Below, one piece after another: positions 19,761 through 42,691 of a stretch of 64,000 bases of DNA. The notes under the pieces are model-generated. The model was not told the DNA's origin. It was given only the letters and a program-made list of their open reading frames with translations, and made no database searches. The DNA is from Gammaproteobacteria bacterium. GTDB taxonomy: Bacteria; Pseudomonadota; Gammaproteobacteria; Steroidobacterales; JBCCMA01. Location of the stretch: contig JBGCEL010000004.1 of the NCBI GenBank assembly GCA_045106455.1, forward strand, positions 6,434 through 70,433. The letters are read 5' to 3'. Within the stretch, counting starts at the first letter, position 1; each line of letters opens with the position of its first letter. The translations under genes and the position numbers were made by a program.

Positions 19761-19772
19761 AATCAGCACACG

Positions 19773-25227: not shown

Positions 25228-25469
25228 GAAAAAAAAATCCTGAGGCCTGAGCACGGCAGTCTTAACGTAATTCGGCCGAAGTATAACGCAACCCACGCGG
25301 TAACAATTTTCCATATTGTGCAAATTCTTGTGGCAAAGCCCGCGGCCATTGACGCCAATTTGACCTGTGTCCCAATTCCCCCACGACATTATTCCCATCC
25401 GGCCACGCACGCTTTAGATTGATGGAGATCCACCGCTAACGGCCTAACGACGTTCAAACCGACCCCTCT

Positions 25470-27227
25470 ATGACGAAAGACTGTGCAACTCGGTGGCTCT
25501 CTTTGCTTTGCAGTATGATCCCCGGCGTTCGCACCGCGTATTATGTCAATGCGGCAACACCTACTTGTGAGCAGCACATTGTCGCCAGCTACCCAGATGG
25601 CGCCACACCAAACGACGCTATTGAAGCGCTTGTACGCGACACACTGGTTGCGCAAGAGGAAATTGCTCGGCCCGTGCCGGGCGTGGCTATCCCGTCCAAA
25701 AGCTGGGCACTGGCACGACTCGTCGCGGTCGCCAACAGCGTGGGCGTCGTTGCACTTGAATTCGATGACACGACACAAGAGCAGCTAGCCGCTATCGGCC
25801 AACTCGTCGCGTGGGCTGGCCAATGGGCCACACTCGCACAGCCCGCTGCCATGGCGGTCAACCGCCACGAGCCAGACCTGAACCTGGCAAACGTGCTGCT
25901 GGAAGCCGCCACACTTGATCAAGCGCTCGCTAAGGCCTGTCGACACTTGTCCGGGAAGTTTGGCGGCACTCGTGTTGCCATCGGGCTGCACGCGGCGGAC
26001 GCCGTTTCTCTTGCCGCCGTCTCGGATCGCGCAGCATTCGACCGCCGCACGCAAAGCGCCGACCTGTATACGGTCGCGATGAATGAAGCGTTTGATCAAA
26101 GCCGTATTGTCGCCCACCCGCACACGGACACTACCGTTGCCGCCGTTAGCGTCGGCCACCGCAAGCTCGCCGATGCCGAGCGCTCCTGCGCGTGCAGCGT
26201 GCCACTTGGCACGAGCGGCGATCCGGCAGGCATCGTCACGCTGCTGCGCGCTGAATCCAAACCATTCACCGATGACGACATGGCGATGTTGCAACCGTAC
26301 GCCGCTTTGCTCGGGCACATCATCCACGTTCGCCGTCGGGCTGAGCAGGGACCTTGGCGTCGCCTGCGTCAGTCCATGCAGAGTTGGCGCAAACATTGGC
26401 TCATGGCCAATGCCCCGCGTCGCCGGATGGCGGTGGTCGGTGCCGCGGCCGTCATTGCGTTTCTGGCTCTGGGCTCTGCCCCGTATCAGGTGGGCGCACC
26501 GGCGGTTCTGGCCGGCACTTCGGAGCGCACCCTCGCCGCTCCGGTGGACGGTTACTTAAGCGAGGTGCACGTGCGCCCCGGCGCACGCGTTGCGAGTGGT
26601 CAAATTTTAGCCACGCTCGACCCGGCGCCACTGGAACGCCAACGCCGACAGTTGCAGGGCCAGCGTAGCCAACTCAACGGCGAGTACAACGTCGCGCTGG
26701 GCAAATTAGACGGTGCCGCGGCCCGCATTTTGCAGTCTCAACTCGCCCAAACTCATGTCCAGATCGAACATCTGGATGCGCAGCTCTCAAGACTCAATAT
26801 CACGGCGCCATTCGACGGCCTGGTTCTTGATGGCGATCTGATGCACGCCGCGGGCGGCCCCGTCGCACTCGGCGACACCCTTTTCCGACTGACCCCGAAC
26901 GGGGGCTATCTGGTGCGCTTGCACGTCTCGGCGAGCGACGTCGAAGCGATTGGCATTGGCGCACGCGGCCGCCTAAAACTAGCGGCACTGCCCAATGCGC
27001 AGCTGGACATTGAAGTGGTGCGAATTAACGGCATCGCACAAACCGTTGACGGCCGCAGCGTGCTGGAGATGGAAGCCACCGTACACGGCAATCAGGACTA
27101 TCTGCGCCCCGGCATGAAAGGCGTTGCACGGCTCGATGCGGGGCACGCCCGAGTTCTGTGGATCTGGACGCATTCAATTTGGCAACGCATGAAGCTCTGG
27201 TTGTGGCGCTTCAGCCCGGTGGCATAA
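25470..27227 (+). CDS. GAF-domain / TM / HlyD-type periplasmic adaptor fusion protein
   Basis: The cytoplasmic N-half ends in a typical GAF C-terminus (SVPLGTSGDPAGIVTLLRAESKPFTDDDMAMLQPYAALLGHII). One TM helix (MAVVGAAAVIAFLALGSAPY). Adaptor motifs: PVDGYLSEVHVRPGARVASGQILATLD, a coiled-coil hairpin, and ITAPFDGLVLDGDL. Confidence 0.7.
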   Translation: MTKDCATRWLSLLCSMIPGVRTAYYVNAATPTCEQHIVASYPDGATPNDAIEALVRDTLVAQEEIARPVPGVAIPSKSWALARLVAVANSVGVVALEFDDTTQEQLAAIGQLVAWAGQWATLAQPAAMAVNRHEPDLNLANVLLEAATLDQALAKACRHLSGKFGGTRVAIGLHAADAVSLAAVSDRAAFDRRTQSADLYTVAMNEAFDQSRIVAHPHTDTTVAAVSVGHRKLADAERSCACSVPLGTSGDPAGIVTLLRAESKPFTDDDMAMLQPYAALLGHIIHVRRRAEQGPWRRLRQSMQSWRKHWLMANAPRRRMAVVGAAAVIAFLALGSAPYQVGAPAVLAGTSERTLAAPVDGYLSEVHVRPGARVASGQILATLDPAPLERQRRQLQGQRSQLNGEYNVALGKLDGAAARILQSQLAQTHVQIEHLDAQLSRLNITAPFDGLVLDGDLMHAAGGPVALGDTLFRLTPNGGYLVRLHVSASDVEAIGIGARGRLKLAALPNAQLDIEVVRINGIAQTVDGRSVLEMEATVHGNQDYLRPGMKGVARLDAGHARVLWIWTHSIWQRMKLWLWRFSPVA

Positions 27228-29351
27228 ATGCACGCAACCCACACACCCACGCCAACTACCTTTACGCCGTGCCTGACACGCGATGCCAGCGTGCATCGTC
27301 ACAGTTATCGCGGTACGCCGTGGTACATCGTGCACGACGGCATGACCGGACGTAGCCTTCATTTGGCCGCCGGTGCGTGGCGCGTTATCGACGCGATGGA
27401 CGGGCGCCGTTCGCCAGAGGAAATACTCGCGTACTTGCAACGCAACGGTGCACCGGTGCAGGCGAACGATGTGCACAGCGTCTGCGCCGAGTTACTGCGC
27501 GCCGGTCTCCTGCAAGGGACGACTTGTGAACAGGCGGATTCGCTGCAACTGGCAAGCCAGCCGCCCCCCCGCTGGAAACAGTGGCTAACCTCCCCACTTT
27601 CTATTCGCCTGCCGCTGCTTAACCCGCAAGTCTGGCTCGACAAACGTATTGCCAACGTAAGGCCCCTGTTCACGTCCACCACGCTGTGGCTGTGGCTGTC
27701 CGTCGTGATCACGGCCTGCTTTATGGCCGTCAGTCACCAAAACGAGCTGACCGAACGCGTCGCCTCGACCGTGATCAGCCCGTACGGCGTCATCCTGTTT
27801 TTGAGCGTTTACGCAGTAATGAAGTCACTGCACGAACTCGCCCATGCGTTTAGCATCCGGGCCTTCGGTGGCGCCGTCAACGAAATGGGCCTGGTGTTTC
27901 TGGTGTTCATGCCGGTGCCCTACGTCGATGCGGCCGCTGCCACCACGTTTGTCAACAAACGCCAGCGTATGCTCGTGAGCGCGTCGGGCATCATGGTAGA
28001 GGCATTTATTGGCGCGATCGCGCTGATACTCTGGACCAAAATCGAGCCCGGCGTGGTACGCGAAATCTGTTTCGCGGCGCTCATTATCGGTGGCGTCTCG
28101 ACGCTTTTGTTCAACGGCAATCCGTTGCTGCGCTTTGACGGCTACTACGTCTTAAGCGACGCTCTGGAAATACCAAATCTCGCCACCCGCTCGCGCCGCT
28201 ATTTGCACTATGCGATACAGCGGTACATGTTGCGCATGAAAGACGCTATTACTCCGGTTGTCACGCCCTCCGAACGCCTTTGGTTTGTGCTGTACGGCGT
28301 GCTGTCATCCATTTACCGTCTGATCATCCTTGCATTCATTGTCTGGTTTGTATCGCGCCAGGTGCCGTTGGTCGGCTACGCACTGGGCGCCTGGGTGTTT
28401 GTGTCGCAGTTGTTGCTACCAGCATTGCGTGGGTTTACCAGCGTCGTGACGCGGGCGCGCAACGCCACCAACTCGCGGCAAGTGTTATCCCGACTTAGCG
28501 CTACAACGCTCGCCTGCGGTGTCGTGACATTCGGCTTGCCAATGCCGGCGTGGAGCAGCGCTGAGGGCGTGATCTGGATGCCGCCAGAGGCGCAGGTTCG
28601 GGCACCCGTTGACGGCACGGTGGCCACAACACTGCTGGGCGACGGGACCAGCATCGTGCCCGAACAAGCCATTGTGCAGCTCGAAAGCCCGTCGCTTGTG
28701 AATGACGCGCGCGTGATAGCCGAACAGCTCAATGAAGTCCGCGCCCGCCAAAACCTTGCTCTGTTTCGCGATCGCAGCGCACTACGCAGCGTGGCTGAAA
28801 ACCTGCACCAGACCGAAATGCGTCTGACAGAAGCCCAACAGAAAGTACGTTCACTAACGCTAAAGAGTCCGGTCGCCGGTGCGCTGCATTTTTTCGATGA
28901 GAACACGCTCGCCGGGCGCTACGTGCGCAAGGGCGAGGTTCTCGCGTACGTGCGCGATGATCAGGCGCCTATTGTGCGCGTGGTCGTGAAACAAACGCAG
29001 ATCGAAAAACTACGCGACCCGAATACGAATGTTCGCGTGCTCATACCCGGTTATTTGGATCGGCAGTTCGCCGCCACTTTGGTGCAAGAGGTTGGGGCCA
29101 CGACTAACACGCTACCCAGCGCCGCATTGGGTAGCGCGGGCGGCGGCCGCATCGCCACAAATCTGACCGATGAACACCGTCGCACAGCGGCCGAGGACGT
29201 ATTTATCCTCGATGTCCAGCTGGCACCGAACGCACCCGACGTGGCGATCGGCACGCGCGTCTACCTACGCTTCGACTACGCCCCGGCTCCGTTGGCTCAG
29301 CAAATGCTGCGCAGCCTGCGCCAGCTCACGCTCGGTGGCAGCCGTGCGTAA
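27228..29351 (+). CDS. PqqD-like domain / site-2-protease (M50) membrane domain / HlyD-type adaptor tri-fusion
   Basis: TAAATG junction with the upstream gene. N-terminal WYIVHDGMTGRSLHLAAGAWRVIDAMDGRRSPEEILAYL...LLRAGLL is PqqD/RRE-like. Polytopic region carries HELAH (HExxH, 27831-27845) and NGNPLLRFDG (S2P NxxPxxxxDG, about 28113-28142). C-terminal adaptor region (VRAPVDGTV..., coiled coil, LKSPVAGAL). Confidence 0.75.
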   Translation: MHATHTPTPTTFTPCLTRDASVHRHSYRGTPWYIVHDGMTGRSLHLAAGAWRVIDAMDGRRSPEEILAYLQRNGAPVQANDVHSVCAELLRAGLLQGTTCEQADSLQLASQPPPRWKQWLTSPLSIRLPLLNPQVWLDKRIANVRPLFTSTTLWLWLSVVITACFMAVSHQNELTERVASTVISPYGVILFLSVYAVMKSLHELAHAFSIRAFGGAVNEMGLVFLVFMPVPYVDAAAATTFVNKRQRMLVSASGIMVEAFIGAIALILWTKIEPGVVREICFAALIIGGVSTLLFNGNPLLRFDGYYVLSDALEIPNLATRSRRYLHYAIQRYMLRMKDAITPVVTPSERLWFVLYGVLSSIYRLIILAFIVWFVSRQVPLVGYALGAWVFVSQLLLPALRGFTSVVTRARNATNSRQVLSRLSATTLACGVVTFGLPMPAWSSAEGVIWMPPEAQVRAPVDGTVATTLLGDGTSIVPEQAIVQLESPSLVNDARVIAEQLNEVRARQNLALFRDRSALRSVAENLHQTEMRLTEAQQKVRSLTLKSPVAGALHFFDENTLAGRYVRKGEVLAYVRDDQAPIVRVVVKQTQIEKLRDPNTNVRVLIPGYLDRQFAATLVQEVGATTNTLPSAALGSAGGGRIATNLTDEHRRTAAEDVFILDVQLAPNAPDVAIGTRVYLRFDYAPAPLAQQMLRSLRQLTLGGSRA

Positions 29352-29400
29352 GACCTTCACACACATAACGCTCCGCCAGAACACTCTGAGAAACACCACG

Positions 29401-30807
29401 ATGCATCAGTCATTTTTCGCCCCACTCGTTTGCGCCATCATGACCGTTGCTGTGGGCAGCACAACGCTTGCCGACGAGTTCGATGCGCACACCCTGAACT
29501 GCGTGATCCTGCCGGACGAGGTCGTCGACATCAGCAGCTCGGTGCCCGGTGTGCTCGAGCAAGTATTGGTGGAGCGCAGCGATAAGATTCAAAAGGGCCA
29601 GGTGCTGGCACGGTTGGAGGCAAGCGTAGAACAGGCGGTCACAGCGTTGGCGGAAGCACGTGCCACGGCCATCTCTGAACTGCGACTACGCCAGACCGAG
29701 CTCGGCTACGATGTTCAGCATCGTGATCGACTGTCTGAATTACAGCAACGCCATGTCGCATCATCGCAATCTTACGAAGACGCGCAGCGCACGGCAGAAG
29801 CCGCGCGCTGGCGACTCAAACTTGCCGAGGAGCGGCGCGAAGAGGCGCAGCTGGATCAACGCCGTGTCGCCGCCCTGCTCGCACAAAAGACCATTCGCAG
29901 TCCCATCGACGGCGTCGTTATCGCGCGGCATCACTCGGTGGGTGAACATGTTAATAGCGAGGCCGTGGTAACGGTCGCCAGGCTCGACCCGCTGCGGGTA
30001 GAGGTGCTTACGCCGATTGACATGTTCGGCAAAATTCAGCCGGGCATGCTGATGGACGTGCGTGCTGAGATCGACCCACAGACGCGGCACACGGCCGAAG
30101 TCGTGGCCGTGGACCCGGTAGCCGATGCCGGCAGCGGCATGTTTGCCGTTGAGCTCACGTTGCCCAACCCGAATAACGCGCTGCCTGCCGGCATCAAGTG
30201 TTACAGCGAACTGAGCCCAGGCGAGCAACCCTCGCCGACCGCCGCGCCCGCATCCACGGTGGCAGATGCACCCAACCCTGTGACGCCCTCGCCCACCCCC
30301 GTGATCACGGCAAACTTTGATGCCAGCGAACTGTGCCGTGTCTTTCCGGCTGTGACCGAACCCGAATCCATCTCGCGCTTGATGCGCACTGCGGTTGTGC
30401 TGGGTGGACGCGCGCAGAAAATACGCGCCGATGTTGCGGTAGCGAACGGCTACATTGTTGCCTCGCCCCGAGCCGACGCAGCGCAGCTTGAGCAGTGGCA
30501 AGAAACCTTAGGCGCGGCGGGCGAAAACGACACCGCCGTAATGCAACGCGGCGATTTTCGTCAGCGACTGACGATGGGCACCTACAACGGACCGCGCTCG
30601 GCAGAGCGCCGTCGCGATCAAATTGCCGCGCTTGGCGTAAGCGCAGAGGTGCTGCCACGCATGCGCAGCGCCACGGCCTGGAAGATTGAGGTGCAGCTTC
30701 CACAGCCGCTGCCAGCGCCAACCGGCACCCCGCCGCTGGCCGCCTTCATGGAACGCTTTAACAGCGAAGCCGTGCCGTGTGCATCCATTCGCGCGGCGAG
30801 CCTCTAA
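29401..30807 (+). CDS. membrane-fusion (RND/HlyD-type) periplasmic adaptor with Pro-rich linker and C-terminal SPOR-like domain
   Basis: Start at ATG 29401 (signal/anchor MHQSFFAPLVCAIMTVAVGSTTLA). Adaptor motifs VVDISSSVPGVLEQVLVERSDKIQKGQVLARLE and IRSPIDGVVIARH. PSPTAAPASTVADAPNPVTPSPTP linker. The C-terminal RLTMGTYNGPRSAERRRDQIAALGVSAEV is SPOR-like. The track start 29170 is an over-extension. Confidence 0.7.
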   Translation: MHQSFFAPLVCAIMTVAVGSTTLADEFDAHTLNCVILPDEVVDISSSVPGVLEQVLVERSDKIQKGQVLARLEASVEQAVTALAEARATAISELRLRQTELGYDVQHRDRLSELQQRHVASSQSYEDAQRTAEAARWRLKLAEERREEAQLDQRRVAALLAQKTIRSPIDGVVIARHHSVGEHVNSEAVVTVARLDPLRVEVLTPIDMFGKIQPGMLMDVRAEIDPQTRHTAEVVAVDPVADAGSGMFAVELTLPNPNNALPAGIKCYSELSPGEQPSPTAAPASTVADAPNPVTPSPTPVITANFDASELCRVFPAVTEPESISRLMRTAVVLGGRAQKIRADVAVANGYIVASPRADAAQLEQWQETLGAAGENDTAVMQRGDFRQRLTMGTYNGPRSAERRRDQIAALGVSAEVLPRMRSATAWKIEVQLPQPLPAPTGTPPLAAFMERFNSEAVPCASIRAASL

Positions 30808-30814
30808 CGTACTC

Positions 30815-33800
30815 ATGACACGCAAACGATCATCCAGACGGCCCGCAAACGCACTGTCGTTTGCGGTCGAGGCGCTTGAGCCGCGGCTGTTGCTGTCGGC
30901 GGACTGGGCGCTGGGCCTGGCGCCGGATGATGTGCGCGATGATCCGTTCGATCTGGATGCCGCCGCGGCCCATCGAGTGTTACGTGCACTCGGTTCTGAA
31001 GCCCCGTTGCCCGCCTCGATGGATCTGGAACATTTTATGGCACTGCAGCCGGCGACGCCGGAATTTGCCAATGATCAGTCCTTGGCAGAGAAGCCGTCGC
31101 GCACCGATTTTAGACTGCTATCCGGCGATGCCCCGCAAAGTGTTGACGACGGCTATTCGGTAAACGAAGACGAATCGATCACGTTCAACGCCGTGTGGTT
31201 CGACCCGGATTGGATCGCACGCCGTGAACTCACCATCGACAACAGCGCCAGCGCCACTGATCTCAACGACTTTCCGGTATTGATCACGCTCGACGCATCG
31301 CGTATCGACTACAGCCTTACCGAGGATGACGGCGACGATCTGCGCTTCACGGATGACGCCGGCAATCTGCTGGATTACGAGATCGAGCTGTGGGACGAAA
31401 GCGGCACGTCTTACGTATGGGTTCGAGTGGACAGCATTACGGCCGGCTCGACGACCGAGAGTATTTACATGTATTACGGCAATTCCAGCGCCGGCGAAGG
31501 GCAATCGCCCCGGGACGTCTGGGATGCCAACTATCAGCAAGTCCAGCATTTGGAGGAAACAAGCGGCAACTACGATGATTCCACCGCCAATGGTGTTGAC
31601 ATCAGTCTTAGCGGCGGCGACCCCCACGGCGACGACATGTTCATCGGTCCCGCCCATGCTTTTGACGGCACCAACGAACTCGACAGCCAACCTGAAGCAC
31701 TCGATGACAGTCGCGCTGCCGGCACAATTTCCATGTGGGTGGAATTTGATGAGCGCTCCGGCGTGATCAACCTGCTGACCTCGGACGTCGCGCGCGATCA
31801 AGCGATTTGGACTGACGACGGTACGTTTCACGTAGCAATGGCCACGAACTTGTTTACCTTTAGTAACCTGTCCGGAGGGTCGATCGAAAACGGCTGGAAT
31901 CAGGTCGTATTCACTTGGGACAGCGTCACCGGCGAACAGGCGCTTTACGCCAACGGCCTATTGGTCGATCAGGTATCGGTGGGCGCATGGGACCCGGATG
32001 GCGTGGACGGCAACACCATCAACATCGGTGGCGCCGCCGACGCCTTTCTGGGCTTTTTTCCCGAGCGCGACGGCCTCCAGGGCGGCATCGATGAAATACG
32101 CGTGTCCGACGTGGCGCGCTCGGCCGATTGGGTGGCCGCACAGTTCGCCACCATCAACGACAATTTTATTAGCTATGGTGCCGAAGAAGGGGCTGCCCGC
32201 GGCGTGCTGGAAAACGACACCGATGCCGAGAACGATGTGCTGGCCGCGGTCCTTGAAACCGGTCCGAGCAATGCCGCATCGTTTACGCTGTTTGCCGACG
32301 GCAGTTTCGAATACACGCCGCAGGCCAATTTCGTCGGCACCGACTCGTTTACCTACCGCGCCGATGACGGCAGCAGTCTCTCGGCGGCCGCGGCGACGGT
32401 CACCATCACCGTCAACGCGGTGAACGACGCCCCGACGTTCACGCTTGGCGGCGCACAGAACGTGAACGAAGATGGCGGTGGACAGAGTGTGGCGAATTTC
32501 TCCGTCGCCTCTGCGGGAGGCGGCGCTGATGAGTCGGGCCAAACGTTTACGTACATCGTCACCGGCGACAACCCGGGCCTGTTTTCGGTAGCACCGAGTA
32601 TTGATGCGGACGGCACACTTACCTACACGCTGGCACCTAACGCCGTTGGCAGCGCCAACCTGACCGTGCAGATGTCCGATTCCGGTGGCACGGCCAATGG
32701 CGGTAGTGACGCCGCTGTCGCGGAAAACTTTGTGATCAACGTTGCTCCCGTAAACGACGCACCTTCGGCCACGTTACTTGGCAACCAAACGGTCGTCGAG
32801 AATGCCGGCCCGCAGGCAGTGGCAAACTTTGCCGCCGGTTTTACGGGTGGTGGCGCGGATGAGAGCGGGCAAAACTTGTCTTATACGGTCATAACCGGTT
32901 TTCCCGCGCTGTTCAGCGCTGCTCCGGCCATCTCTCCCGACGGCACGCTGACGTTCACATTTGCCGACGGGATGTCTGGCTCCACCACGGTGGACGTGAT
33001 TGTCAGGGACGATGGGGGCACTGCGAATGGCGGTCAAGACACCTCTACCACCTACACCTTCACTCTGACCGCGACGCCGGCGTCGGTACCGCCGACGGCG
33101 CTGAACATGGATCAGACACTCAGCTACATTGAAGACAACACGCTCGACCTCGCGAACATCATTGTCAGCGACGGCGATGCCGGCGATGTGATTACCGCAA
33201 CGCTCACGCTGGCCGATCCATTGGCAGGTAGTTTGAGCACGCTCAGCGGCGCAGGCGAAACGTACGTAGCGGCCACGGGACGCTGGCGCATCGTGGGCAC
33301 GCAAGCCGAAGTGAACACCGCACTCGCCAACGTCACGTTCGTCCCGGCTGCCAACTACGCGCTGGATACGAGCATTGCAGTGAATATTCAAGATGCGGAC
33401 GGAACCGGCCCTGCGGATGGGCTGATCGAGCTTAACGCCCTGGCCGTTAACGATGCGCCCTCCGCAACGCTCGCAGGCGACGTCAACGTTTTGGAGAACT
33501 CAGGACCACAAACCATCGCCGGATTTGCGGTTGGATTTGTCGGTGGCGGTACTGATGAGGCCGGTCAAGCACTCACTTATATAGTGAGCGCTGATCAGGT
33601 CAACATGTTTAGCAGCGGCCCGGTGATTTCCTCGGACGGCACCCTGAGCTTCACCACCGCGGACAACGTTACCGGCAGTGCAACCGTTCGCGTGCGCGTG
33701 ATCGACGATGGCAACACCGCCAATGGCGGGCAAAATCAGTCGGTCGACTACACGTTCAATATCATCATCAATGATCGGCCCGATGCACCGACGACCACCA

Positions 33801-36550
33801 ACATGAACCAAGTCGTGCTGTATACCGAAGACGGCGGCCCGGTCGACTTTGCGGACATGGTGGTGAGCGACGACGATCCGGGCGAGACGATTACCGCAAC
33901 GCTAACACTCGCTGATCCCACAGCCGGCGTGTTGACCACGCTCAGCGGTTCGGGCGAGACCTACAATGCCGTTGCCGGTCAGTGGCAAATCACCGGCAAC
34001 GCAGCCACCGTGAATGCGGCGCTTGCCAATCTATCGTTCGCGCCCGGTGCAAACTACGCGCTCGATACGAGCATCAACGTGCGTATTGTCGACGCCGCCG
34101 GCACTGGCCCGTCCGACGGAACGATCGCGCTGCAGGCGATCGCCATCAACGATACACCCCAGGCCATCTTTGCCGGCGATATTGCCGTGGACCAGAACGC
34201 CGGAGCTCAAACTTTTGCAGGCTTCGCGACACCGTCCCCCGGTGGTGGCACAGATGAACTCGCACAAACATTTACCTATACCGTCACCGTGGATAACGGC
34301 GCTTTATTTAGCGTTGCGCCCGCCATCACGCCCGACGGTACGCTCACGTTTACGGCCGCGGACAACACTTCCGGCAGCACCACGGTACGCGTGCGCGTCA
34401 CCGATAGCGGCGACACCGTCAATGGCGGTCAAGACCAGTCGATCGAATATGTGTTCCAAATTGACATCGGCGCACCCACTGCGACCAACTTGAATCAGGT
34501 CGTCAACTACATTGAAGACGGCGACCCGGTTGGGTTTGATGCCATTGTCGTAAGCAATGCTGCCCCGGATGAAACCATTACAGCGACACTCAGCCTGAGC
34601 GATCCGGCCGCCGGATCGCTGTCCACTGCAAGCGGTTTGGGCGAGACATTGACCACCTCAGGACAGTGGCGAATCACCGGCACCGTCGCACAGGTCAACG
34701 CCGCACTTGCCGACGTCACGTTTACGGCTGCGAACAATTACGCACAAGACTTGAGCATTGTCGTGCGCATCACCGATGCGGCCGGAAACGGGCCTGCTGA
34801 TGGTTTGCTGGCCCTCCAGGCAACCGCCGTCAATGATGCACCACTGGCAAGCCAGCTCAATCAAATCCAGAATTTTCTGGAAGACACCATTGACGTGGCG
34901 CTCAACGACATTGTGGTCAGTGATGTTGACGCCGGCGACGTTGTTTCTGCCACGTTAACCCTGGACAACCCGGCGGCAGGACAGCTGTCGAGCTCGAGTG
35001 GCAACGGCGAATCCTATGACGCACGCAGCGGCACCTGGCGCGTCAGTGGTAGCACGGCGCAAGTGAGTGCCGCCCTGGCCGCTGTCGTGTTCGAACCGCT
35101 GAATGATTTTGCCGGCAGTGTCAGCGTACGCACACAGATTGTGGATCAAGACGGTGCCGGGCCCGATGCCGGCGTCATTACTCTGCAGGCCACGGCCGTA
35201 AACGATGCACCAACCGTCGCCGTTTCCGGCGATTTGGTGGTTGACGAAGACGCCCCGGCCCAACGCATAGCCGGCTTTGCAAACGTGCTAGACAACGGCG
35301 GCGCGGACGAGAGCGGTCAAACCATCGTCTACAGTCTCAGCACCGACAATGAAGATTTATTCCGGGTCGCACCCTCCATCAGCGAGACGGGCGAACTCCA
35401 TTACGAGCTTGCCGCCAACGCCAACGGCACCGCCAACATCACCGTCGTGGCGCGCGATGATGGCGGTCGCGACAACGGCGGCGTCGACACGGCTCCTACA
35501 CAGCAGTTCGTGATTCAGGTCAATCCTGTCAACGACGCGCCGGAAGCAACCAGCCAGTTTGTGGTCGCGCCGCCCTCTGGCATTGTGGTGCTGTCAGCGG
35601 CTTCGTTCGGATTTACCGATCCCGCCGATGGCGATACCTTCGAAGGCGTATTTATTACAAGTTTGCCAGCGCAAGGCGAACTGTTGCTCGACGGTCAACC
35701 CGTGGCCGCCGGCGCGTTCGTTTCGGCCGCCGATCTTGTCGCAAATCGGCTGTCGCTGTCGTCGTTTGCCATACCCGGCGATAGCCTGCTACTGAGTTTC
35801 GATTTTCTAGTCCGTGACTCGGGTGGTACCGCCGATGGCGGCACCGACGTGGCGGTCAAGACCAGCACGATTACGATATCTGTCGACGTACCCAAGACGG
35901 ACGGCACCACGAACACAACACCAGCCGTGATCTCAGAAGCCGACGCCTCGGCCGACACGACCACCGCAACGGTCGTCAGCGACGCGGATCAGTCGACCGA
36001 TGAACAGCGGTCTGCTCCCGCGATCGACCTGAGCACGCCGGCAAGCCCTGCAACCCTTGCGCCCACGGTCGCCGTCACAACGCCGGTGACGAGCCTGCTC
36101 GAGATTCCCCAAGCCGCCGATGCAACCCAAGCGGCGAAGACTTTCAGTCCGGCGGTATCGCGTGTGCTGGTTTCACTGCTCGAAAATGTCCGCTCCGGCA
36201 TTGGCGATGCCACTGTCATCCAGACCACGGCCACCACGACGCTTGCGGCCGTCACCGAGATACTCGTGGAGCAACTTAGCGACCTGCGCGACGAAACCGG
36301 CGCCGAGCAGGCCTCGGAGGAACTGGTCATCATGCAGTCCAGCGCGGTGGCCTTCGGCTTGTCGGTAGGCTACGTCTCCTGGTTGCTGCGTGGCGGTGTG
36401 TTGGTCAGCAGCATGCTTACCTCCCTGCCGGCCTGGCGCTTTATTGATCCATTGCCGATTTTCTCGGGCGTACGACAAGGTGACGAGGACGAAGAGTCGT
36501 TGCAGGATATCGTCAGCGCCGACGAGCACGACACAGGACCACAAGCGTGA
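30815..36550 (+). CDS. 1911-aa repeat adhesin-like protein: LEPR-XLL N-terminus, DUF2341 + LamG-like, about 100-aa VNDAP-delimited repeats, C-terminal membrane anchor
   Basis: ATG 30815 lies 8 nt after the upstream stop. N-terminus MTRKRSSRRPANALSFAVEALEPRLLLSAD. DUF2341-like block (RRELTIDNSASATDLNDFPVLITLD...YVWVRVDSI...IYMYYGN). LamG-like block (...IDEIRVSDVARSADWVAAQF). Ten repeat modules follow. C-terminal hydrophobic segment AVAFGLSVGYVSWLLRGGVLVSSMLTSLPAW, then an acidic tail. Confidence 0.8.
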   Translation: MTRKRSSRRPANALSFAVEALEPRLLLSADWALGLAPDDVRDDPFDLDAAAAHRVLRALGSEAPLPASMDLEHFMALQPATPEFANDQSLAEKPSRTDFRLLSGDAPQSVDDGYSVNEDESITFNAVWFDPDWIARRELTIDNSASATDLNDFPVLITLDASRIDYSLTEDDGDDLRFTDDAGNLLDYEIELWDESGTSYVWVRVDSITAGSTTESIYMYYGNSSAGEGQSPRDVWDANYQQVQHLEETSGNYDDSTANGVDISLSGGDPHGDDMFIGPAHAFDGTNELDSQPEALDDSRAAGTISMWVEFDERSGVINLLTSDVARDQAIWTDDGTFHVAMATNLFTFSNLSGGSIENGWNQVVFTWDSVTGEQALYANGLLVDQVSVGAWDPDGVDGNTINIGGAADAFLGFFPERDGLQGGIDEIRVSDVARSADWVAAQFATINDNFISYGAEEGAARGVLENDTDAENDVLAAVLETGPSNAASFTLFADGSFEYTPQANFVGTDSFTYRADDGSSLSAAAATVTITVNAVNDAPTFTLGGAQNVNEDGGGQSVANFSVASAGGGADESGQTFTYIVTGDNPGLFSVAPSIDADGTLTYTLAPNAVGSANLTVQMSDSGGTANGGSDAAVAENFVINVAPVNDAPSATLLGNQTVVENAGPQAVANFAAGFTGGGADESGQNLSYTVITGFPALFSAAPAISPDGTLTFTFADGMSGSTTVDVIVRDDGGTANGGQDTSTTYTFTLTATPASVPPTALNMDQTLSYIEDNTLDLANIIVSDGDAGDVITATLTLADPLAGSLSTLSGAGETYVAATGRWRIVGTQAEVNTALANVTFVPAANYALDTSIAVNIQDADGTGPADGLIELNALAVNDAPSATLAGDVNVLENSGPQTIAGFAVGFVGGGTDEAGQALTYIVSADQVNMFSSGPVISSDGTLSFTTADNVTGSATVRVRVIDDGNTANGGQNQSVDYTFNIIINDRPDAPTTTNMNQVVLYTEDGGPVDFADMVVSDDDPGETITATLTLADPTAGVLTTLSGSGETYNAVAGQWQITGNAATVNAALANLSFAPGANYALDTSINVRIVDAAGTGPSDGTIALQAIAINDTPQAIFAGDIAVDQNAGAQTFAGFATPSPGGGTDELAQTFTYTVTVDNGALFSVAPAITPDGTLTFTAADNTSGSTTVRVRVTDSGDTVNGGQDQSIEYVFQIDIGAPTATNLNQVVNYIEDGDPVGFDAIVVSNAAPDETITATLSLSDPAAGSLSTASGLGETLTTSGQWRITGTVAQVNAALADVTFTAANNYAQDLSIVVRITDAAGNGPADGLLALQATAVNDAPLASQLNQIQNFLEDTIDVALNDIVVSDVDAGDVVSATLTLDNPAAGQLSSSSGNGESYDARSGTWRVSGSTAQVSAALAAVVFEPLNDFAGSVSVRTQIVDQDGAGPDAGVITLQATAVNDAPTVAVSGDLVVDEDAPAQRIAGFANVLDNGGADESGQTIVYSLSTDNEDLFRVAPSISETGELHYELAANANGTANITVVARDDGGRDNGGVDTAPTQQFVIQVNPVNDAPEATSQFVVAPPSGIVVLSAASFGFTDPADGDTFEGVFITSLPAQGELLLDGQPVAAGAFVSAADLVANRLSLSSFAIPGDSLLLSFDFLVRDSGGTADGGTDVAVKTSTITISVDVPKTDGTTNTTPAVISEADASADTTTATVVSDADQSTDEQRSAPAIDLSTPASPATLAPTVAVTTPVTSLLEIPQAADATQAAKTFSPAVSRVLVSLLENVRSGIGDATVIQTTATTTLAAVTEILVEQLSDLRDETGAEQASEELVIMQSSAVAFGLSVGYVSWLLRGGVLVSSMLTSLPAWRFIDPLPIFSGVRQGDEDEESLQDIVSADEHDTGPQA
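32420..35890 (+). repeat. ten tandem ~110-120-aa modules of three types (order A-A-B-A-B-A-B-B-A-C) within the adhesin gene
   Basis: Most junctions carry VNDAP. Type A consensus: ...ENxGxQxxxxFAxxxxGGGxDExGQxxTYxV...LFSxxPxIxxDGTLTFT...GSxxVxVxVxDxGxTANGGxD. Type B consensus: ...NxxQxxxYxEDxxxxxxxIVVSDxDxGxxITATLTLxDPxAGxLxTxSGxGETY...WxIxGxxAxVNxALAxxxF...DAxGxGPxDGxIxLxAxA. Boundaries are approximate. Confidence 0.7.
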
Positions 36551-39051
36551 AACGACCGTCAGCACGCACAATGGTAACCATCGCCATTACTTTGGTGATG
36601 CTCAGCCTGTTTTTATTCAGCACCGTGCTTGGCATGTTCCCCGACATCGAAAAGACCCGCCGTGAAGGGCGTGTGACCGTCGCTGAGCTCATGGCACTTG
36701 GCCTGATTAATGACATCGGTAACGAACGAGAAGATCGCATCGGACAAACGCTGCGTTTTGCCGTAGAGCGAAATTCTGACATCGAATCAGCCGCCGTGCG
36801 CGACGCCAGCGGCCTTGCCATTGGCACCGCCGGTGACCACGCGGGCTACTGGACCCCCATCCAAAGCGGGCAATCGAGCGTGGCGCAGATCACTGTGCCA
36901 ATCATGCGCGGGAACACACAATGGGGTTCACTCGAACTGCGTTTCCGTGAGCACCAGCGACCGGGCGTGGTGGGTATGCTTGATCGGCCTATCGTGCGCT
37001 TTGCACTGTATCTGCTCGTTGGCGGGTTCTTTGCCACCTATTTTATTTTGGGTCGCATGCTGCGCGCTTTAGATCCCACGCAGGCCGTGCCCTCGCGCGT
37101 ACGCTCAGCGCTGGACACCATAAGCGAAGGCCTCATCGCCATCGACACCAAAGGTCAGGTGATGCTTGCCAACGCCGCCTTCGCGACCCTCTGCGGGCGC
37201 GATGCCGATGCACTTGTGGGCATAAGCGTCGCAGATCTTGCGTGGGTTGGCGATGAAGACGGTCAGGTTAAGCATCCGTGGGAGCGCACGCTGCAAGACA
37301 GTCAGGCCGTTATTAACGAATCGATGACGCTCAAAGATAAAGACGGGAAGCAGCGCACGTTCCTCGTTAACTGCTCACCGGTGCTCGGCGGCAACGGCAA
37401 AGCACTTGGTGCACTGATTGGTCTTGGCGACGTTACCGAACTCGAGGAAAAAGAAATTCAGTTACGGCGCTCCAAAGAAGAGGCCGAAGCCGCCAACCGC
37501 AGCAAAAGCGAATTTTTGGCCAACATGAGTCATGAAATTCGAACGCCCATGAACGCTATTCTGGGCTTTACGAACCTGCTCAAGCGCGGCTACGCCAAGA
37601 ACGCACAGCAGCGTCAGGAATATCTGCAGACCATTGAGTCCAGTGGTTCGTTCTTGCTCGAACTTATTAACGATTTGCTGGATCTGTCCAAAATCGAGGC
37701 CGGCTCGCTGACCATGGAGACCCTCGAGTGTGAGGCGCATTTGGTCGTTCGCGACGTCTGCACGACGCTGCAGCTGCGTGCGCAGGAAAACAACGTTGAC
37801 CTCTCATTTGCCGTCACCACAGAAATACCCCAGCACATTCAGACCGACCCGACGCGTTTGCGGCAGATCGTGACAAACCTTCTGGGTAACGCCATCAAAT
37901 TCACCTCGGACGGCACCGTGGATGTCACCGTGGCACTCGATGCCGACGACCCTACCCTGCTCGCCGTGGCCGTCACCGACTCGGGCGTGGGCATGACAGA
38001 GGACCAAACGAAGGCGATTTTCGAGCCCTTCGTGCAGGCTGATTCATCCATTACGCGACGCTTTGGCGGCACGGGTCTCGGCCTGTCCATTAGCCGACGC
38101 TTCGCACGTGCACTGGGTGGCGACATTTATGTCGACAGCACGGCCGGCGTTGGCAGCACCTTCACAGCGCGGATTGCCACCGGCAATACCGAAGGTGTGC
38201 CTCGCATCTCGCCCGAAGCAGCCTCCCAGGCCGTGCACATCGAAGAGGCGGTTTCCACGTCAAGCCTGCATCTGCCCAATGCGCATGTGCTGGTGGCAGA
38301 CGACAACAAACAGAATCGCGATCTGCTGCGTCTGGTGCTGGAGGAGCACGGTTTGCGTGTGACAACCGCCGTTAATGGCGAGGAGGCCGTTGCGGCTGTG
38401 TCCGAAAGCATGTTCGACATTATATTGATGGACGTGCAAATGCCGGTAATGGACGGCTACGAGGCCACACGCGCCATACGATCCAGCGGTATCGAAGTGC
38501 CCATTATTGCCCTTACGGCTCTGCTCATTGGCGAGGCTCGAGACGCACTGCTTGAAGCAGGCTTCGACGCCTTCTTCGCCAAACCCATCGATGTAGACGG
38601 CCTGCTTGAACTTATCGCCGAGAAGCTCGGCAGCCTGCCCGCGTGCACGCTGCAGCAGACCCCGCGCGACGGGCCGACCCCGGATACCGAATCGACCGCG
38701 CCCATTGCGTCGCGTTTGCCAGTACACGACCCGCGCTACCGGGACATTGTGCAAGAATTTGTCGACCAGCTTGATGACACGATCAAACAGCTGCGCGATG
38801 CGTTTGATGTGGGCGATCACAAACGTCTGGCTGAGGTAGCGCACTATCTCAAGGGCGTTGCTGGCAGCATGGGCTATCCCGACTTCACCGCGCCTTGCAG
38901 AGATTTAGAGCACGCGGTCACCTCACGACACGATGCCAATATTCGCGCCAGCCTGAGCGTCATCGACGCACTCGCCGCGCGCGTCGTTTTGAGCGACGTC
39001 TCGGTTGCGGTGACGGACAGCCGCACAGCTTCAGTCGCAGCAGCACAATAA
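36547..39051 (+). CDS. hybrid sensor histidine kinase (2 TM, PAS, HisKA, HATPase_c, REC, HPt)
   Basis: GTG 36547 overlaps the adhesin stop (GTGA). H-box SEFLANMSHEIRTPMNAILGF. G-boxes DSGVGM and GGTGLGLSISRRFA. Receiver VLVADDNKQNRDLL...DIILMDVQMPVMDG. HPt-like AHYLKGVAGSMGY. Confidence 0.9.
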   Translation: MKRPSARTMVTIAITLVMLSLFLFSTVLGMFPDIEKTRREGRVTVAELMALGLINDIGNEREDRIGQTLRFAVERNSDIESAAVRDASGLAIGTAGDHAGYWTPIQSGQSSVAQITVPIMRGNTQWGSLELRFREHQRPGVVGMLDRPIVRFALYLLVGGFFATYFILGRMLRALDPTQAVPSRVRSALDTISEGLIAIDTKGQVMLANAAFATLCGRDADALVGISVADLAWVGDEDGQVKHPWERTLQDSQAVINESMTLKDKDGKQRTFLVNCSPVLGGNGKALGALIGLGDVTELEEKEIQLRRSKEEAEAANRSKSEFLANMSHEIRTPMNAILGFTNLLKRGYAKNAQQRQEYLQTIESSGSFLLELINDLLDLSKIEAGSLTMETLECEAHLVVRDVCTTLQLRAQENNVDLSFAVTTEIPQHIQTDPTRLRQIVTNLLGNAIKFTSDGTVDVTVALDADDPTLLAVAVTDSGVGMTEDQTKAIFEPFVQADSSITRRFGGTGLGLSISRRFARALGGDIYVDSTAGVGSTFTARIATGNTEGVPRISPEAASQAVHIEEAVSTSSLHLPNAHVLVADDNKQNRDLLRLVLEEHGLRVTTAVNGEEAVAAVSESMFDIILMDVQMPVMDGYEATRAIRSSGIEVPIIALTALLIGEARDALLEAGFDAFFAKPIDVDGLLELIAEKLGSLPACTLQQTPRDGPTPDTESTAPIASRLPVHDPRYRDIVQEFVDQLDDTIKQLRDAFDVGDHKRLAEVAHYLKGVAGSMGYPDFTAPCRDLEHAVTSRHDANIRASLSVIDALAARVVLSDVSVAVTDSRTASVAAAQ

Positions 39052-39095
39052 ATGCTGCACGCCTTATACACGGAACCGCAGGCGGAGAACTTCCA

Positions 39096-40904
39096 ATGAC
39101 AACGCGCCCAACAACGGATGGAACACTGGAGGTCGCCGCCGCGAGCAAAAGCGCCGGCGCCGACCCTAAGATTATGATCGTGGACGACGCTTCCATGACC
39201 ATCCGAATTCTGCAAACGTTTTTGGAAGATGCCGGCTATCGTCGCTTCGTGACCACCAGCGATTCGACCCAAGCCATTGAGCTGGTCGAGTCCGAGCGAC
39301 CTGATGCGTTGCTGCTGGACCTGCATATGCCAAGTGTTAGCGGCTTTGATATTTTGGAGCAAATTCGCGCGAGCTTCGACATTCGCCACACTCCCGTTAT
39401 TATTCTCACCGCCTCCGATGACGGCAACAGCAAACTAAAAGCACTGGAGCTTGGTGCTACGGACTTTTTGGCCAAGCCGGTCGATACCAGCGAACTGGCA
39501 CTGCGCCTGCGCAATACTCTGGCCACCAAAACCTATCAGGATCGACTGACGTACTACGATCCGCTCACCGATTTACCCAATCGAAAACTGCATAGCGAGC
39601 GACTCTCGCGCAGTCTCGTCCGCGCATTTCGAAGTAGACAACGCGGCGCCATGCTGCACATCAATCTCGACCGCTTTCGCCGCGTAAACTCCTCGCTCGG
39701 CCACGCTGCCGGCGACCATCTGCTGCGGCACACGGCGCAGCGACTCGATCGAATTGTGCGCCAACTCGACAACTCCGTGTCGTTGTCCATGGAACCCGGT
39801 ACACCCACGGCCGCTCGTTTGGGTGGCGACGAATTCGGAGTTCTACTGCCCACCGTCGAAAGCAACGATGCCGCCCGCGCCATTGCAGAGCAGATCCTCG
39901 GTGCCATCACCAAGCCGGTGGAATGGAAAGGCAGCGAAGTGGTGGTTACCGCCAGCATTGGCGTCGAGACGTTTCCAGACTCCGCCACCACCACGCAGCA
40001 GATTATTCGCAACGTCACGCTGGCGGCCGCTCGCGCCCGGTCGCTGGGTCGCAACCGGCATGAAGTATATTCGCCGCTGTCCGAGGCCAGCGTGTCGCAG
40101 GAAGTGCATCTTGAAAGCGATCTGCATCGCGCCCTGTCGCGCAACGAGCTGCGCTTGCACTATCAACCCAAAGTGGACCTGGCGACGGGCAATATCGGCA
40201 GCGCCGAGGCACTATTGCGCTGGGAGCACAAAACCCGCGGTCTGGTGAGTCCCAGCGAATTTATCCCGCTAGCCGAACAAACCGGTCTCATCGTGCCGTT
40301 TGGCACCTGGGTCATCCAAACCGCCTGCGCGCAAATCCGGCAGTGGTGCGATGACGGCCTGCCGCCGCTGCCGGTGGCGGTAAACGTCTCCAGCCTGCAG
40401 TTTGCCAACGGTGACCTGTTATCCATCGTGGCCGACGCCATTACCACCGCCGGTATCGCGCCTGCGCTGCTCATTTTGGAGCTCACCGAAACCGCCGTTC
40501 TAAAAAACACCGAAGAGACGATTAGCACTCTGCACGCGATTCGCTCGCTCGGGGTCAAACTGTCGCTGGATGATTTCGGAACCGGTTACTCGTCACTGTC
40601 GTATCTTGAGCGACTGCCAATCGACCAACTAAAAATCGATCGGTCGTTTGTCGAGAAAATTGAAGACGGCAACACCGCGCCCATCGTAGACGCCGTGATC
40701 GCCATGGCCAAGAGTCTCGGCATGCACACCGTGGCGGAGGGTGTCGAAGAACCCTGTCAGGTGGACTACCTCAAGGCCCGCCACTGCGATCAATATCAAG
40801 GCTTTTACTTTTCGCGCGCCGTAGACCCCGTGTCGTTCGGCAACCTGGTGGCCGAACAAATGAAGCGCGAGCGGCCGCAAGTCAGCACGGCGCAAGCACG
40901 CTAA
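39096..40904 (+). CDS. response regulator with REC-GGDEF-EAL domains (c-di-GMP turnover)
   Basis: Start re-picked at ATG 39096. REC IMIVDDASMTIRIL...LLLDLHMPSVSGFD. Intact RLGGDEFGVLL. EAL-domain motifs SAEALLRWEH and SLDDFGTGYSSLSYL. Confidence 0.9.
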   Translation: MTTRPTTDGTLEVAAASKSAGADPKIMIVDDASMTIRILQTFLEDAGYRRFVTTSDSTQAIELVESERPDALLLDLHMPSVSGFDILEQIRASFDIRHTPVIILTASDDGNSKLKALELGATDFLAKPVDTSELALRLRNTLATKTYQDRLTYYDPLTDLPNRKLHSERLSRSLVRAFRSRQRGAMLHINLDRFRRVNSSLGHAAGDHLLRHTAQRLDRIVRQLDNSVSLSMEPGTPTAARLGGDEFGVLLPTVESNDAARAIAEQILGAITKPVEWKGSEVVVTASIGVETFPDSATTTQQIIRNVTLAAARARSLGRNRHEVYSPLSEASVSQEVHLESDLHRALSRNELRLHYQPKVDLATGNIGSAEALLRWEHKTRGLVSPSEFIPLAEQTGLIVPFGTWVIQTACAQIRQWCDDGLPPLPVAVNVSSLQFANGDLLSIVADAITTAGIAPALLILELTETAVLKNTEETISTLHAIRSLGVKLSLDDFGTGYSSLSYLERLPIDQLKIDRSFVEKIEDGNTAPIVDAVIAMAKSLGMHTVAEGVEEPCQVDYLKARHCDQYQGFYFSRAVDPVSFGNLVAEQMKRERPQVSTAQAR

Positions 40905-42559: not shown

Positions 42560-42633
42560 GGCGTTTTCCTTAGGTTGTCGACGTCACGACTATAGCCAAG
42601 CCGTCGCATGGCCGCACACTTGCACTGCACCAT

Positions 42634-42663
42634 AAAAAAACCCCGCCTCAGGGGCGGGGTTTG
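42634..42663 (-). terminator. rho-independent terminator of aceA
   Basis: On the minus strand: aaccccgcc-cctga-ggcggggtt followed by TTTTTTT (stem 42641-42647 / 42653-42659; A-run 42634-42640 on the plus strand). It sits about 30 nt after the aceA stop. Confidence 0.8.
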
Positions 42664-42691
42664 CCTTTCGCCTGAAAGCGCCCGCGAGCGA

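Follow-up and report, generated by a model that had tools for sequence, protein, structure and literature searches.

A hybrid histidine kinase and a REC-GGDEF-EAL protein encoded at the 3' end of a giant surface-protein gene: a conserved gene trio of Gamma- and Betaproteobacteria

We analyzed a 64,000-nucleotide stretch of DNA from Gammaproteobacteria bacterium (assembly GCA_045106455.1, contig JBGCEL010000004.1, positions 6,434 to 70,433 of the forward strand), hereafter the window, which carries the gene of a giant repeat protein followed by the genes of a hybrid histidine kinase (HK) and of a response regulator with REC, GGDEF and EAL domains (RGE). An original prediction, made from the letters of the region 36547-40904, had proposed that the HK and RGE genes are translationally coupled to the giant gene, which it took for an adhesin gene, and that cyclic di-GMP (c-di-GMP) might feed back on the adaptor and protease machine encoded upstream; its coordinates and features proved correct when the sequence was read again. 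Most of what is understood about how c-di-GMP controls giant adhesins comes from the Lap paradigm of Pseudomonas fluorescens and Pseudomonas putida, which comprises the LapA adhesin, the c-di-GMP receptor LapD, the LapG protease and the LapBCE type I secretion system. From its sequences and its recurrence in other genomes, the trio of giant gene, HK gene and RGE gene appears to be a conserved control module and not a set of chance neighbours.

Results

Organization of the giant gene, the HK gene and the RGE gene

The giant gene (30815..36550, + strand; assigned by Pfam, NCBIfam and translation) encodes a repeat protein of 1911 amino acids (aa) and ends with a TGA stop codon at 36548-36550. The open reading frame (ORF) of the HK opens at a GTG at 36547 on the same strand, with an AGGA motif 8 nucleotides (nt) 5' of it, and has the 4 nt GTGA (36547..36550) in common with the end of the giant gene, exactly the overlap that had been claimed. 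We regard this overlap as a translational-coupling junction on the basis of its sequence and of the gap distribution in 59 loci described below. The start of the HK can be fixed at GTG 36547 because its two closest relatives (loci L008 and L003) have an ATG at the homologous overlap, which there reads ATGA, and encode the same N-terminus as the window HK, MKRPSAR. An alternative start at ATG 36571 was rejected, since the relatives align from residue 1 and place their ATG at the homologous overlap position. The HK ORF encodes 834 aa and ends with a TAA stop codon at 39049-39051. After a gap of 44 nt (39052-39095), again as originally reported, the RGE ORF opens at ATG 39096, preceded by a GGAG motif 8 nt 5' of the ATG, and encodes 602 aa; at its 3' end, 40904, it shares 4 nt with the 3' end of a convergent AMP-binding gene. 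From the overlapping or abutting start codons, we infer that translation of the HK depends on ribosomes having completed the 5.7-kb giant ORF.

The real start of the giant gene is ATG 30815, which lies 7 nt past the stop codon of the preceding gene and gives the N-terminus MTRKRSS...LEPRLLLS. The protein consists of an N-terminal LEPR-XLL motif (27.7 bits in NCBIfam, where the cutoff is 17), a DUF2341 domain, Big_9/cadherin-like/tandem-95 repeats and a conserved C-terminal anchor. Its last approximately 60 residues form a strongly conserved motif, GLSVGYV[SA]WLLRGGVLLSS.LTSLPAWRFIDPLPI, with an acidic tail. In two alignments the core of this anchor, GLSVGYVSWLLRGGVLVSSMLTSLPAWRFIDPLPI, maps to 36356..36460 on the + strand, and the acidic tail follows to 36547. 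No model in Pfam or NCBIfam covers the anchor in scans at E <= 1, and its sequence looks like an undescribed sorting or anchoring signal.

The anchor motif S.GYV.W.LRGG...SLPAWRFIDP, with an acidic tail, is common to giant proteins of Gamma- and Betaproteobacteria and of Planctomycetota (Rhodopirellula, Stieleria). Over its N-terminal DUF2341 region, the window giant protein has 50% identity with a giant protein from Stieleria, and several genomes, as seen in Stieleria mannarensis (L076/L083) and in locus L089 (15644-23435), have at least two giants in tandem with the same anchor or the same DUF4347 N-terminus.

Domains and sensor of the histidine kinase

The HK (36547..39051, + strand) was classified as an unorthodox hybrid histidine kinase by Pfam, by conservation in 50 orthologues, and by AlphaFold2 modelling and Foldseek searches, and its start was set by homology. 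It is an inner-membrane protein in which a periplasmic sensor of approximately 120 residues (29-148) lies between two predicted transmembrane (TM) helices, TM1 (10-28) and TM2 (149-167), and is followed by PAS (184-295), HisKA (319-386), HATPase_c (433-543), REC (581-690) and Hpt (733-809) domains. The HisKA match (E 1.8e-23) includes H329 in the motif SHEIRTPMN, which is invariant in 50/50 orthologues. Likewise invariant among the orthologues are the G1 and G2 boxes (DxGxG, GGTGLGL) of the HATPase_c domain (E 1.5e-27) and the acceptor D629 of the internal REC domain (E 3.2e-25), while H766 of the Hpt domain (HxxKG; E 1.8e-12) is conserved in 98% of them. Thus, the claim that the kinase has its own REC and HPt domains is borne out by Pfam, and both phosphorylatable residues, D629 and H766, are present. 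The best NCBIfam equivalogs fall well below their cutoffs (BarA, 393.5 vs 890 bits; TorS, 373.6 vs 676.5; ArcB, 305.7 vs 838), and the HK has no HAMP domain.

The periplasmic segment is 35% identical among orthologues, with the conserved motifs LAE, V.RN..LSA, H...W and VP..G..WG..ELRF.P, and matches nothing in Pfam or NCBIfam in scans at E <= 1. Its AlphaFold2 model is confident (pLDDT of 85.7) but has only four strands. Foldseek aligned this model at a probability of approximately 1.0 to WalK (4ywz), to the HK sensor 4onx, to 3cwf and to CitA (8biy), with E values of 1e-3 to 5e-2 and modest target-normalised TM-scores of 0.5-0.7. Its best matches were to the extracellular domain of WalK, to an HK sensor from Clostridium perfringens, to CitA and to a LapD orthologue over the periplasmic domain (4u64, E 4e-3). 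Because these scores are modest, we limit ourselves to a fold assignment, namely that the modelled sensor resembles a small PDC or extracytoplasmic PAS-like fold. The sensor family comprises 1173 cluster representatives at 50% identity, 665 of them at E <= 1e-10. It invariably occupies the N-terminus of the protein; the longest of the listed members have the length of kinases (approximately 800-1250 aa), and many others in the list are shorter.

The number of HPt domains varies from one to three in tandem among the HK orthologues. The window HK has a single HPt, and two or three are encoded by the HK genes of L011, L013, L015, L016 and L021, whose products are 950-1100 aa long. A separate REC-HPt gene precedes the RGE gene at some loci (L085, 12774-13562; L029, ~13297-14085).

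The REC-GGDEF-EAL protein conserves its receiver and its phosphodiesterase site

RGE (39096..40904, + strand; Pfam and motif conservation) is the sole response regulator of the unit and has no DNA-binding domain. Pfam places its REC domain at residues 26-138, GGDEF at 153-321 and EAL at 342-574 (E 1.7e-76 for EAL). The REC residues D30/D31, the phospho-acceptor D75, T105 and K127 are all present. In the EAL domain we find EALLR at 371-375 (nt 40206-40220), N430, ELTE at 462-465, DDFGTGYSSL at 492-501, K513, EGVE at 548-551 and QG at 568-569. The GGDEF domain reads RLGGDEF at 241-247 (nt 39816-39836) and has the substrate- and metal-ligand residues D192, N198 and D207; an RxxD I-site 5' of the GGDEF motif is absent from RGE, a feature that does not define the GGDEF family.

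The original prediction held that both the GGDEF and the EAL motifs are intact, which is true of the window copy and needs revision for the family. A GGDEF-type diguanylate cyclase is characterised by GG[DE]EF together with the Mg/GTP-binding residues equivalent to D327, N335 and D344 of PleD, and the window copy has the full set. A canonical GG[DE]EF is found in only 13 of 50 RGE orthologues, 10 of which also keep the D/N/D ligands, and approximately 30 of the 50 keep the looser [GSA]G[DE]EF, many of them reading [SA]GDEF. Approximately 14 orthologues have a plainly dead motif (GGADF, GTSEF, GRNEF, AEGEF and others). The window RGE and its nearest relative, from L008, thus belong to the minority with a canonical cyclase site. 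In contrast, the EAL catalytic elements are invariant in all 49 orthologues that cover those columns, the 50th being truncated, and the REC residues (DD, D75, T and K) are invariant across all 50. The same gradient is seen over whole domains: mean pairwise identity is 60% for REC, 50% for EAL and 35% for GGDEF, and near-invariant columns number 34/113, 35/234 and 8/169, respectively. Because the REC and EAL residues are invariant while the GGDEF domain decays, the conserved activity of the family would be c-di-GMP hydrolysis, and its conserved output is probably a REC-controlled c-di-GMP phosphodiesterase. To judge from its residues, the window RGE may retain cyclase activity as well.

The closest solved structures to RGE are the GGDEF-EAL tandems of MorA (4rnh) and MucR (5m3c), and the structure of RocR (3sy8) is also among its matches, at E 5e-34 over the EAL domain. 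The best NCBIfam match, DibA, reaches 444.4 bits against a cutoff of 980 and aligns only with the GGDEF-EAL part (residues 148-576). Neptuniibacter-type loci have two tandem REC-GGDEF-EAL paralogues.

The trio recurs across Gamma- and Betaproteobacteria

We scanned 185,579 species-representative genomes for the anchor motif and compared the resulting 76 loci with the window proteins by tblastn. This set was seeded by anchor similarity and so samples anchors that resemble the one in the window; the flanks extend 10 kb, which hides upstream genes beside very long giant genes. Among the proteobacterial-type loci, 63 extend 700 nt or more beyond the anchor, and in 59 of these a full-length HK orthologue follows immediately; the RGE gene is likewise present at every one of the 45 loci whose downstream DNA reaches 5.5 kb or more. 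The HK orthologues are 40-46% identical to the window protein, N-terminal sensor included, and 78% identical in the closest relative (L008). Across the 59 junctions between giant stop and HK start, 16 are 4-nt overlaps, 4 are 1-nt overlaps and 4 have zero gap, and 41 are at most 6 nt. Conversely, of the HK homologues drawn independently from a protein search, the 7 that were looked up on their contigs all lie in the order giant gene, HK, RGE. The unit occurs in about 60 species of Gamma- and Betaproteobacteria, and culturable carriers include Neptuniibacter, Neptunomonas, Amphritea, Saccharophagus, Dasania and Maricurvus, with Neptuniibacter caesariensis MED92, Neptunomonas phycophila, Saccharophagus sp. 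K07 and Maricurvus nonylphenolicus KU41E among them.

Genes outside the unit vary between loci. The trio is intact without adjacent HlyD/M50 genes in a Methylococcaceae locus (L084), with divergently transcribed HlyD/M50 genes in L085, and in L089, whose cassette has a SecA-like ATPase. Between anchor, HK and RGE domains, the distance matrices are correlated at r 0.5-0.8; there is thus no sign of module swapping, which fits co-inheritance. Taken together, the conserved adjacency, the stop/start coupling and the persistence of the trio in L084 and L085 uphold the claim that the adhesin gene is tied to HK and RGE. The idea that HK and RGE form a cognate pair also fares well, as they occur together in 45/45 loci and their phospho-acceptor residues are conserved, from which they would be expected to behave as one.

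Three contigs labelled as metagenome-assembled genomes of Sphingobacterium, Streptomycetaceae and Rhodothermales (L017, L063 and L068) carry a gammaproteobacterial-type giant-HK-RGE unit at 43-46% identity and are probably mis-binned.

The anchor core is of the identical type in loci with and without HK and has no HK-specific positions, so the kinase does not explain the conservation of the anchor. Genes 3' of the anchor in the HK-less loci are unrelated (housekeeping or other), and no alternative signalling module was found among them. At one of the four HK-less proteobacterial loci, the giant gene is an additional copy, and the genome's other giant gene is accompanied by HK and RGE.

The upstream genes of the operon

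The trio forms the 3' half of six + strand genes packed within 25470-40904, which encode GAF-HlyD, M50-HlyD, HlyD, the LEPR-XLL giant protein, HK and RGE. The junctions are, in order, 0 nt, an overlap, 7 nt, a 4-nt overlap and 44 nt. No long intergenic gaps and no terminator-like sites above chance lie between 25470 and 40904, and a promoter and terminator scan of 24800-42800 found nothing beyond shuffled expectation and no internal terminator.

The first gene (25470..27227, + strand) encodes an HlyD-family periplasmic adaptor (Pfam GAF_2/GAF and HlyD_3/HlyD_D23) with a cytoplasmic N-terminal region that includes a GAF domain (residues 147-286) and with a single predicted TM segment at 320-338. 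The second (27228..29351, + strand; NCBIfam, Pfam HlyD_3 and TM prediction) encodes a polytopic HExxH (M50/site-2-protease-like) membrane metalloprotease fused to HlyD, with seven predicted TM segments, a below-cutoff NCBIfam match to daptide_HExxH (161 bits) and a weak RiPP-binding match at residues 40-95. This M50-HlyD family has 4941 matches at E <= 1e-10, and Pfam marks some members as Peptidase_M50 or, N-terminally, as PqqD/RRE-type. The pairing of an RRE-like leader-binding domain with a protease raises the possibility that M50-HlyD binds and cleaves the giant protein at its LEPR-XLL leader or at its anchor. The third gene (29335..30807, + strand) encodes another HlyD-family adaptor (Pfam HlyD_3/HlyD_D23, NCBIfam RND_mfp). 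Its start is uncertain from the reading of the junction (GTG 29335 or 29344, or ATG 29401), and in tblastn the orthologues align only from ORF residues 43-109 onward. The C-terminal approximately 165 residues of this adaptor (30310-30804) give only marginal SPOR/FtsN-like matches (E ~0.06) and may be a cell-wall-binding module. In scans at E <= 1, neither this C-terminus nor the N-terminus of GAF-HlyD gave a meaningful match in Pfam or NCBIfam.

Related GAF-HlyD/M50-HlyD/HlyD cassettes in L086 (12144-14138), L087 (12141-14138) and L089 (1-1015) encode a SecA-like ATPase of approximately 665 aa (SecA_DEAD, SecA_PP_bind, P-loop_SecA) between M50-HlyD and the last HlyD, a gene that the window cassette lacks. 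This ATPase is a hint at a dedicated export function of the cassette. The cassette of L087 also has a separate SH3_3 protein after the adaptor.

The search for a c-di-GMP effector

The original prediction had suggested that c-di-GMP may feed back on the machine, for example through the GAF adaptor. Because it is cytoplasmic, the GAF domain would be well placed to read a nucleotide. In the HK-RGE cassettes of Amphritea and strain AS21, however, the first HlyD protein is short (418-450 aa) and has no GAF domain detectable at the sensitivity of Pfam and tblastn, and the L086 and L087 cassettes have GAF-HlyD and M50-HlyD, with the SecA-like ATPase, and lack HK and RGE. GAF and HK-RGE therefore dissociate in both directions, and we rejected the GAF domain as an obligate c-di-GMP receiver; the proposed feedback finds no support in these cassettes. 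A PilZ-like RxxxR...[DN]xSxxG motif occurs in none of the six cassette proteins, and no Rfam family, c-di-GMP riboswitches included, matches anywhere in the 64-kb window.

We searched the ORFs of the window, covering all large ones and part of those below approximately 250 aa, for an ABC exporter, TolC, LapD and LapG (C93), and none was found among them. The statement that no LapD or LapG homologue is present therefore holds for every large ORF scanned, and neither the LapG protease nor the LapBCE type I secretion that characterise a Lap-type retention system is encoded by the scanned ORFs. RGE itself scores 119.9 bits (approximately 120) against NCBIfam LapD, where the cutoff is 1020, has no convincing TM segment and carries REC at its N-terminus.

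Discussion

We propose that HK and RGE are the dedicated signalling arm of the giant-surface-protein operon, and we put the probability of this reading at approximately 0.6. All residues for a relay from His329 to Asp629 to His766 are in place, and the REC domain of RGE has the acceptor Asp75. Production of the HK would be contingent, through the overlap, on finishing the 5.7-kb giant ORF. Its sensor would respond to a periplasmic or envelope cue, probably one linked to the state of the giant protein or of its HlyD/M50 machine; the relay would then switch the EAL phosphodiesterase, and the module would turn the cue into a change in c-di-GMP, most likely a fall. The window copy, with its canonical GGDEF domain, may in addition act as a cyclase or sense GTP, in which case it would be a bifunctional switch set by phosphorylation. 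Precedents for the sign of such control differ: phosphorylation inhibits the ArrR phosphodiesterase (PMC11841396), whereas it lowers the cyclase activity of Lpl0329 and shifts RavR towards phosphodiesterase activity (bioRxiv 10.1101/604611).

Several observations weigh against this proposal. The pair is missing from four proteobacterial anchored loci (L055, L059, L065 and L081) and from all 10 Planctomycetota loci, which have unrelated genes downstream, and it must therefore be accessory to the anchor system. The start codons behind the 59 junction distances were picked heuristically. Specificity of phosphotransfer from HK to RGE is deduced from synteny only, and the cassette shows no effector that would receive the signal (no PilZ-like motif, LapD-like receptor or riboswitch). 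The fully canonical GGDEF domain of the window RGE (D192, N198, D207, GGDEF) is compatible with net synthesis. Finally, co-evolution specific to the anchor and the HK sensor or TM segments was sought by mirror-tree and partial-correlation analysis; the partial r of anchor and sensor (0.17-0.32) does not exceed that of anchor and PAS or REC (0.38), a result that says nothing either way on direct contact. Because the anchor is unchanged where the HK is absent and the mirror-tree signal is not specific, a direct link from adhesin to HK has no support in the sequences.

This last point bears on a bolder form of the proposal, in which the giant protein and the HK would be one sensory device in an integrin-like, outside-in pathway of surface sensing. 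The giant protein, anchored in the inner membrane, would serve as an extracellular antenna whose engagement, tension, cleavage or export state is read at the membrane by the co-translated PDC-domain HK and, by way of the phosphorelay and then the phosphodiesterase, turned into a c-di-GMP signal, all within an undescribed HlyD/M50 export and anchoring system, with or without the SecA-like ATPase. The stop/start coupling, the co-inheritance, the conserved sensor and a modelled PDC-like fold resembling those of protein-binding sensors such as WalK and LapD are compatible with such a pathway, which we nevertheless think unlikely.

A different output is conceivable if RGE mainly makes c-di-GMP, with phosphorylation toggling between synthesis and hydrolysis, in which case production of the adhesin would raise c-di-GMP. 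The window copy and its L008 relative keep RLGGDEF, D192, N198 and D207, the full set being kept by 10/50 orthologues and [GSA]G[DE]EF by approximately 30/50; bifunctional precedents exist in Lpl0329/Lpg0277 and RavR (bioRxiv 10.1101/604611), and the nearest solved structures, MorA and MucR, are GGDEF-EAL tandems. Yet GGDEF is the least constrained domain of RGE and lacks an I-site, and approximately 14 orthologues have a dead GGDEF motif while EAL is never degenerate, so that we hold net synthesis to be a somewhat unlikely alternative to a phosphodiesterase output. Control could also run inside-out, as in Lap, with the GAF domain or another cassette protein reading c-di-GMP and gating the M50 protease, and hence retention or release of the giant protein. 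The Lap logic is already established, the six genes form a single tight operon, the GAF domain is cytoplasmic and N-terminal to the TM segment and the periplasmic HlyD part, and an intramembrane-type protease is at hand with a conserved membrane anchor as its possible substrate. The dissociation of GAF and HK-RGE in both directions, the occurrence of the trio without adjacent HlyD/M50 genes (L084) and the failure to find LapD or LapG among the large window ORFs scanned make such control improbable. To our knowledge, there is no established precedent for a c-di-GMP-binding GAF domain. Lastly, hybrid HKs and GGDEF-EAL proteins both come in large families of paralogues, and the NCBIfam best matches (BarA, TorS and DibA) are generic and below cutoff, as would be seen if an ordinary two-component and c-di-GMP pair with an unrelated global role happened to stand beside an adhesin gene. 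Against this stand the adjacency at 59/63 and 45/45 loci across Gamma- and Betaproteobacteria at 40-46% HK identity, and a stop/start overlap that is conserved while the flanking genes beyond the unit are not; a single block spread by recent horizontal transfer is contradicted by those identities and by co-divergence at r ~0.7. Because order, adjacency and tight junctions recur across loci, we regard this explanation as excluded for practical purposes.

Signalling from an unorthodox HK to a REC-linked c-di-GMP enzyme is already known, as is the control of giant adhesins by c-di-GMP in the Lap system. In Pseudomonas aeruginosa, RocS1 (PAS-HisKA-HATPase-REC-HPt) signals to the REC-EAL phosphodiesterase RocR, and the system controls cup fimbriae. 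The operon described here is alike in joining an unorthodox HK to a probable phosphodiesterase and to a surface adhesin; it differs in that RocR has no GGDEF domain, the Roc system includes the DNA-binding RocA1 and has no adhesin gene fused to it, and sequence similarity between the two is confined to generic domains. The HK has the cytoplasmic architecture and the phosphorelay chemistry of BarA/GacS, TorS and ArcB, its best NCBIfam matches, and is set apart from them by scores far below the cutoffs, the lack of HAMP and a sensor of a separate, uncurated family. The Lap system and the locus have in common a giant repeat adhesin, a protease encoded alongside it, HlyD-family adaptors and a c-di-GMP theme, and the output domain of a LapD orthologue (4u64) appears from the model to share a general PDC-like fold with the HK sensor (E 4e-3). 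The locus differs from Lap in that no LapD, LapG/C93 protease, ABC transporter or TolC is found among the scanned window ORFs, its protease combines an intramembrane HExxH enzyme with HlyD in one protein, and its adhesin carries LEPR-XLL at the N-terminus and a membrane anchor at the C-terminus. LapD is a degenerate transmembrane receptor, whereas RGE is, by its sequence, a soluble, REC-controlled protein with intact catalytic residues.

In Legionella pneumophila (Lpl0330/Lpl0329, i.e. Lpg0278/Lpg0277) and in the Xanthomonas RavR system, an HK phosphorylates a REC-GGDEF-EAL protein and shifts the balance of cyclase and phosphodiesterase activities; the Legionella pair is co-transcribed with a third, functionally linked gene, lpg0279, and the GGDEF activity of Lpg0277 is the important one in vivo (bioRxiv 10.1101/604611). 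Here, too, an HK would drive a REC-GGDEF-EAL enzyme and a linked third gene is expected to be co-transcribed. However, translational coupling to a giant surface-protein gene has not been reported for the Lpl0330 and RavR kinases, the HK of the window differs from them in being unorthodox, the family having its own REC and 1-3 HPt domains, and the RGE family conserves EAL and not the GGDEF domain on which Lpg0277 relies. In Aeromonas veronii, ArrS/ArrR is a two-component system whose response regulator is a phosphorylation-regulated c-di-GMP phosphodiesterase, under the transcriptional control of ArgR and with no link to an adhesin operon (PMC11841396). It resembles HK-RGE in that phosphodiesterase regulator and differs in not being tied to an adhesin gene.

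The giant-HK-RGE unit itself is not described in the searchable literature, which we queried for LEPR-XLL, DUF4347, HlyD with M50, GGDEF and cadherin, and REC-GGDEF-EAL. Not described there are a translationally coupled pair at the 3' end of a membrane-anchored LEPR-XLL/DUF4347 giant gene, the uncurated sensor domain of the HK, and the embedding of the pair in a large, uncharacterised HlyD/M50 cassette family. The locus thus represents a widely distributed wiring unlike Lap, with phosphorelay and phosphodiesterase genes welded to an adhesin gene, and offers a handle on a cassette family with thousands of members. Should the HK read the state of the adhesin or of its export machine, this unit would offer a compact, genetically tractable model for coupling the display of a surface protein to second-messenger levels; if the pair merely tunes global c-di-GMP, it would be a well-documented but ordinary case of operon-linked signalling.

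Other genes of the window

The region 16127-21413, 5' of the cassette and on the same strand, contains a gene for a 966-aa CHAT-domain protein, a small ORF and a gene for a subtilase-like S8 protein. A GH16-domain protein (23314-25410, - strand) is divergent from the start of the cassette across a 59-nt intergenic gap, and a second GH16-domain protein of 2070 aa, which contains Big_12, is encoded at 55221-61433 on the + strand. Together with a G8/CEMIP beta-helix protein (9493-12291, - strand), the two GH16 proteins suggest a polysaccharide-degrading marine lifestyle.

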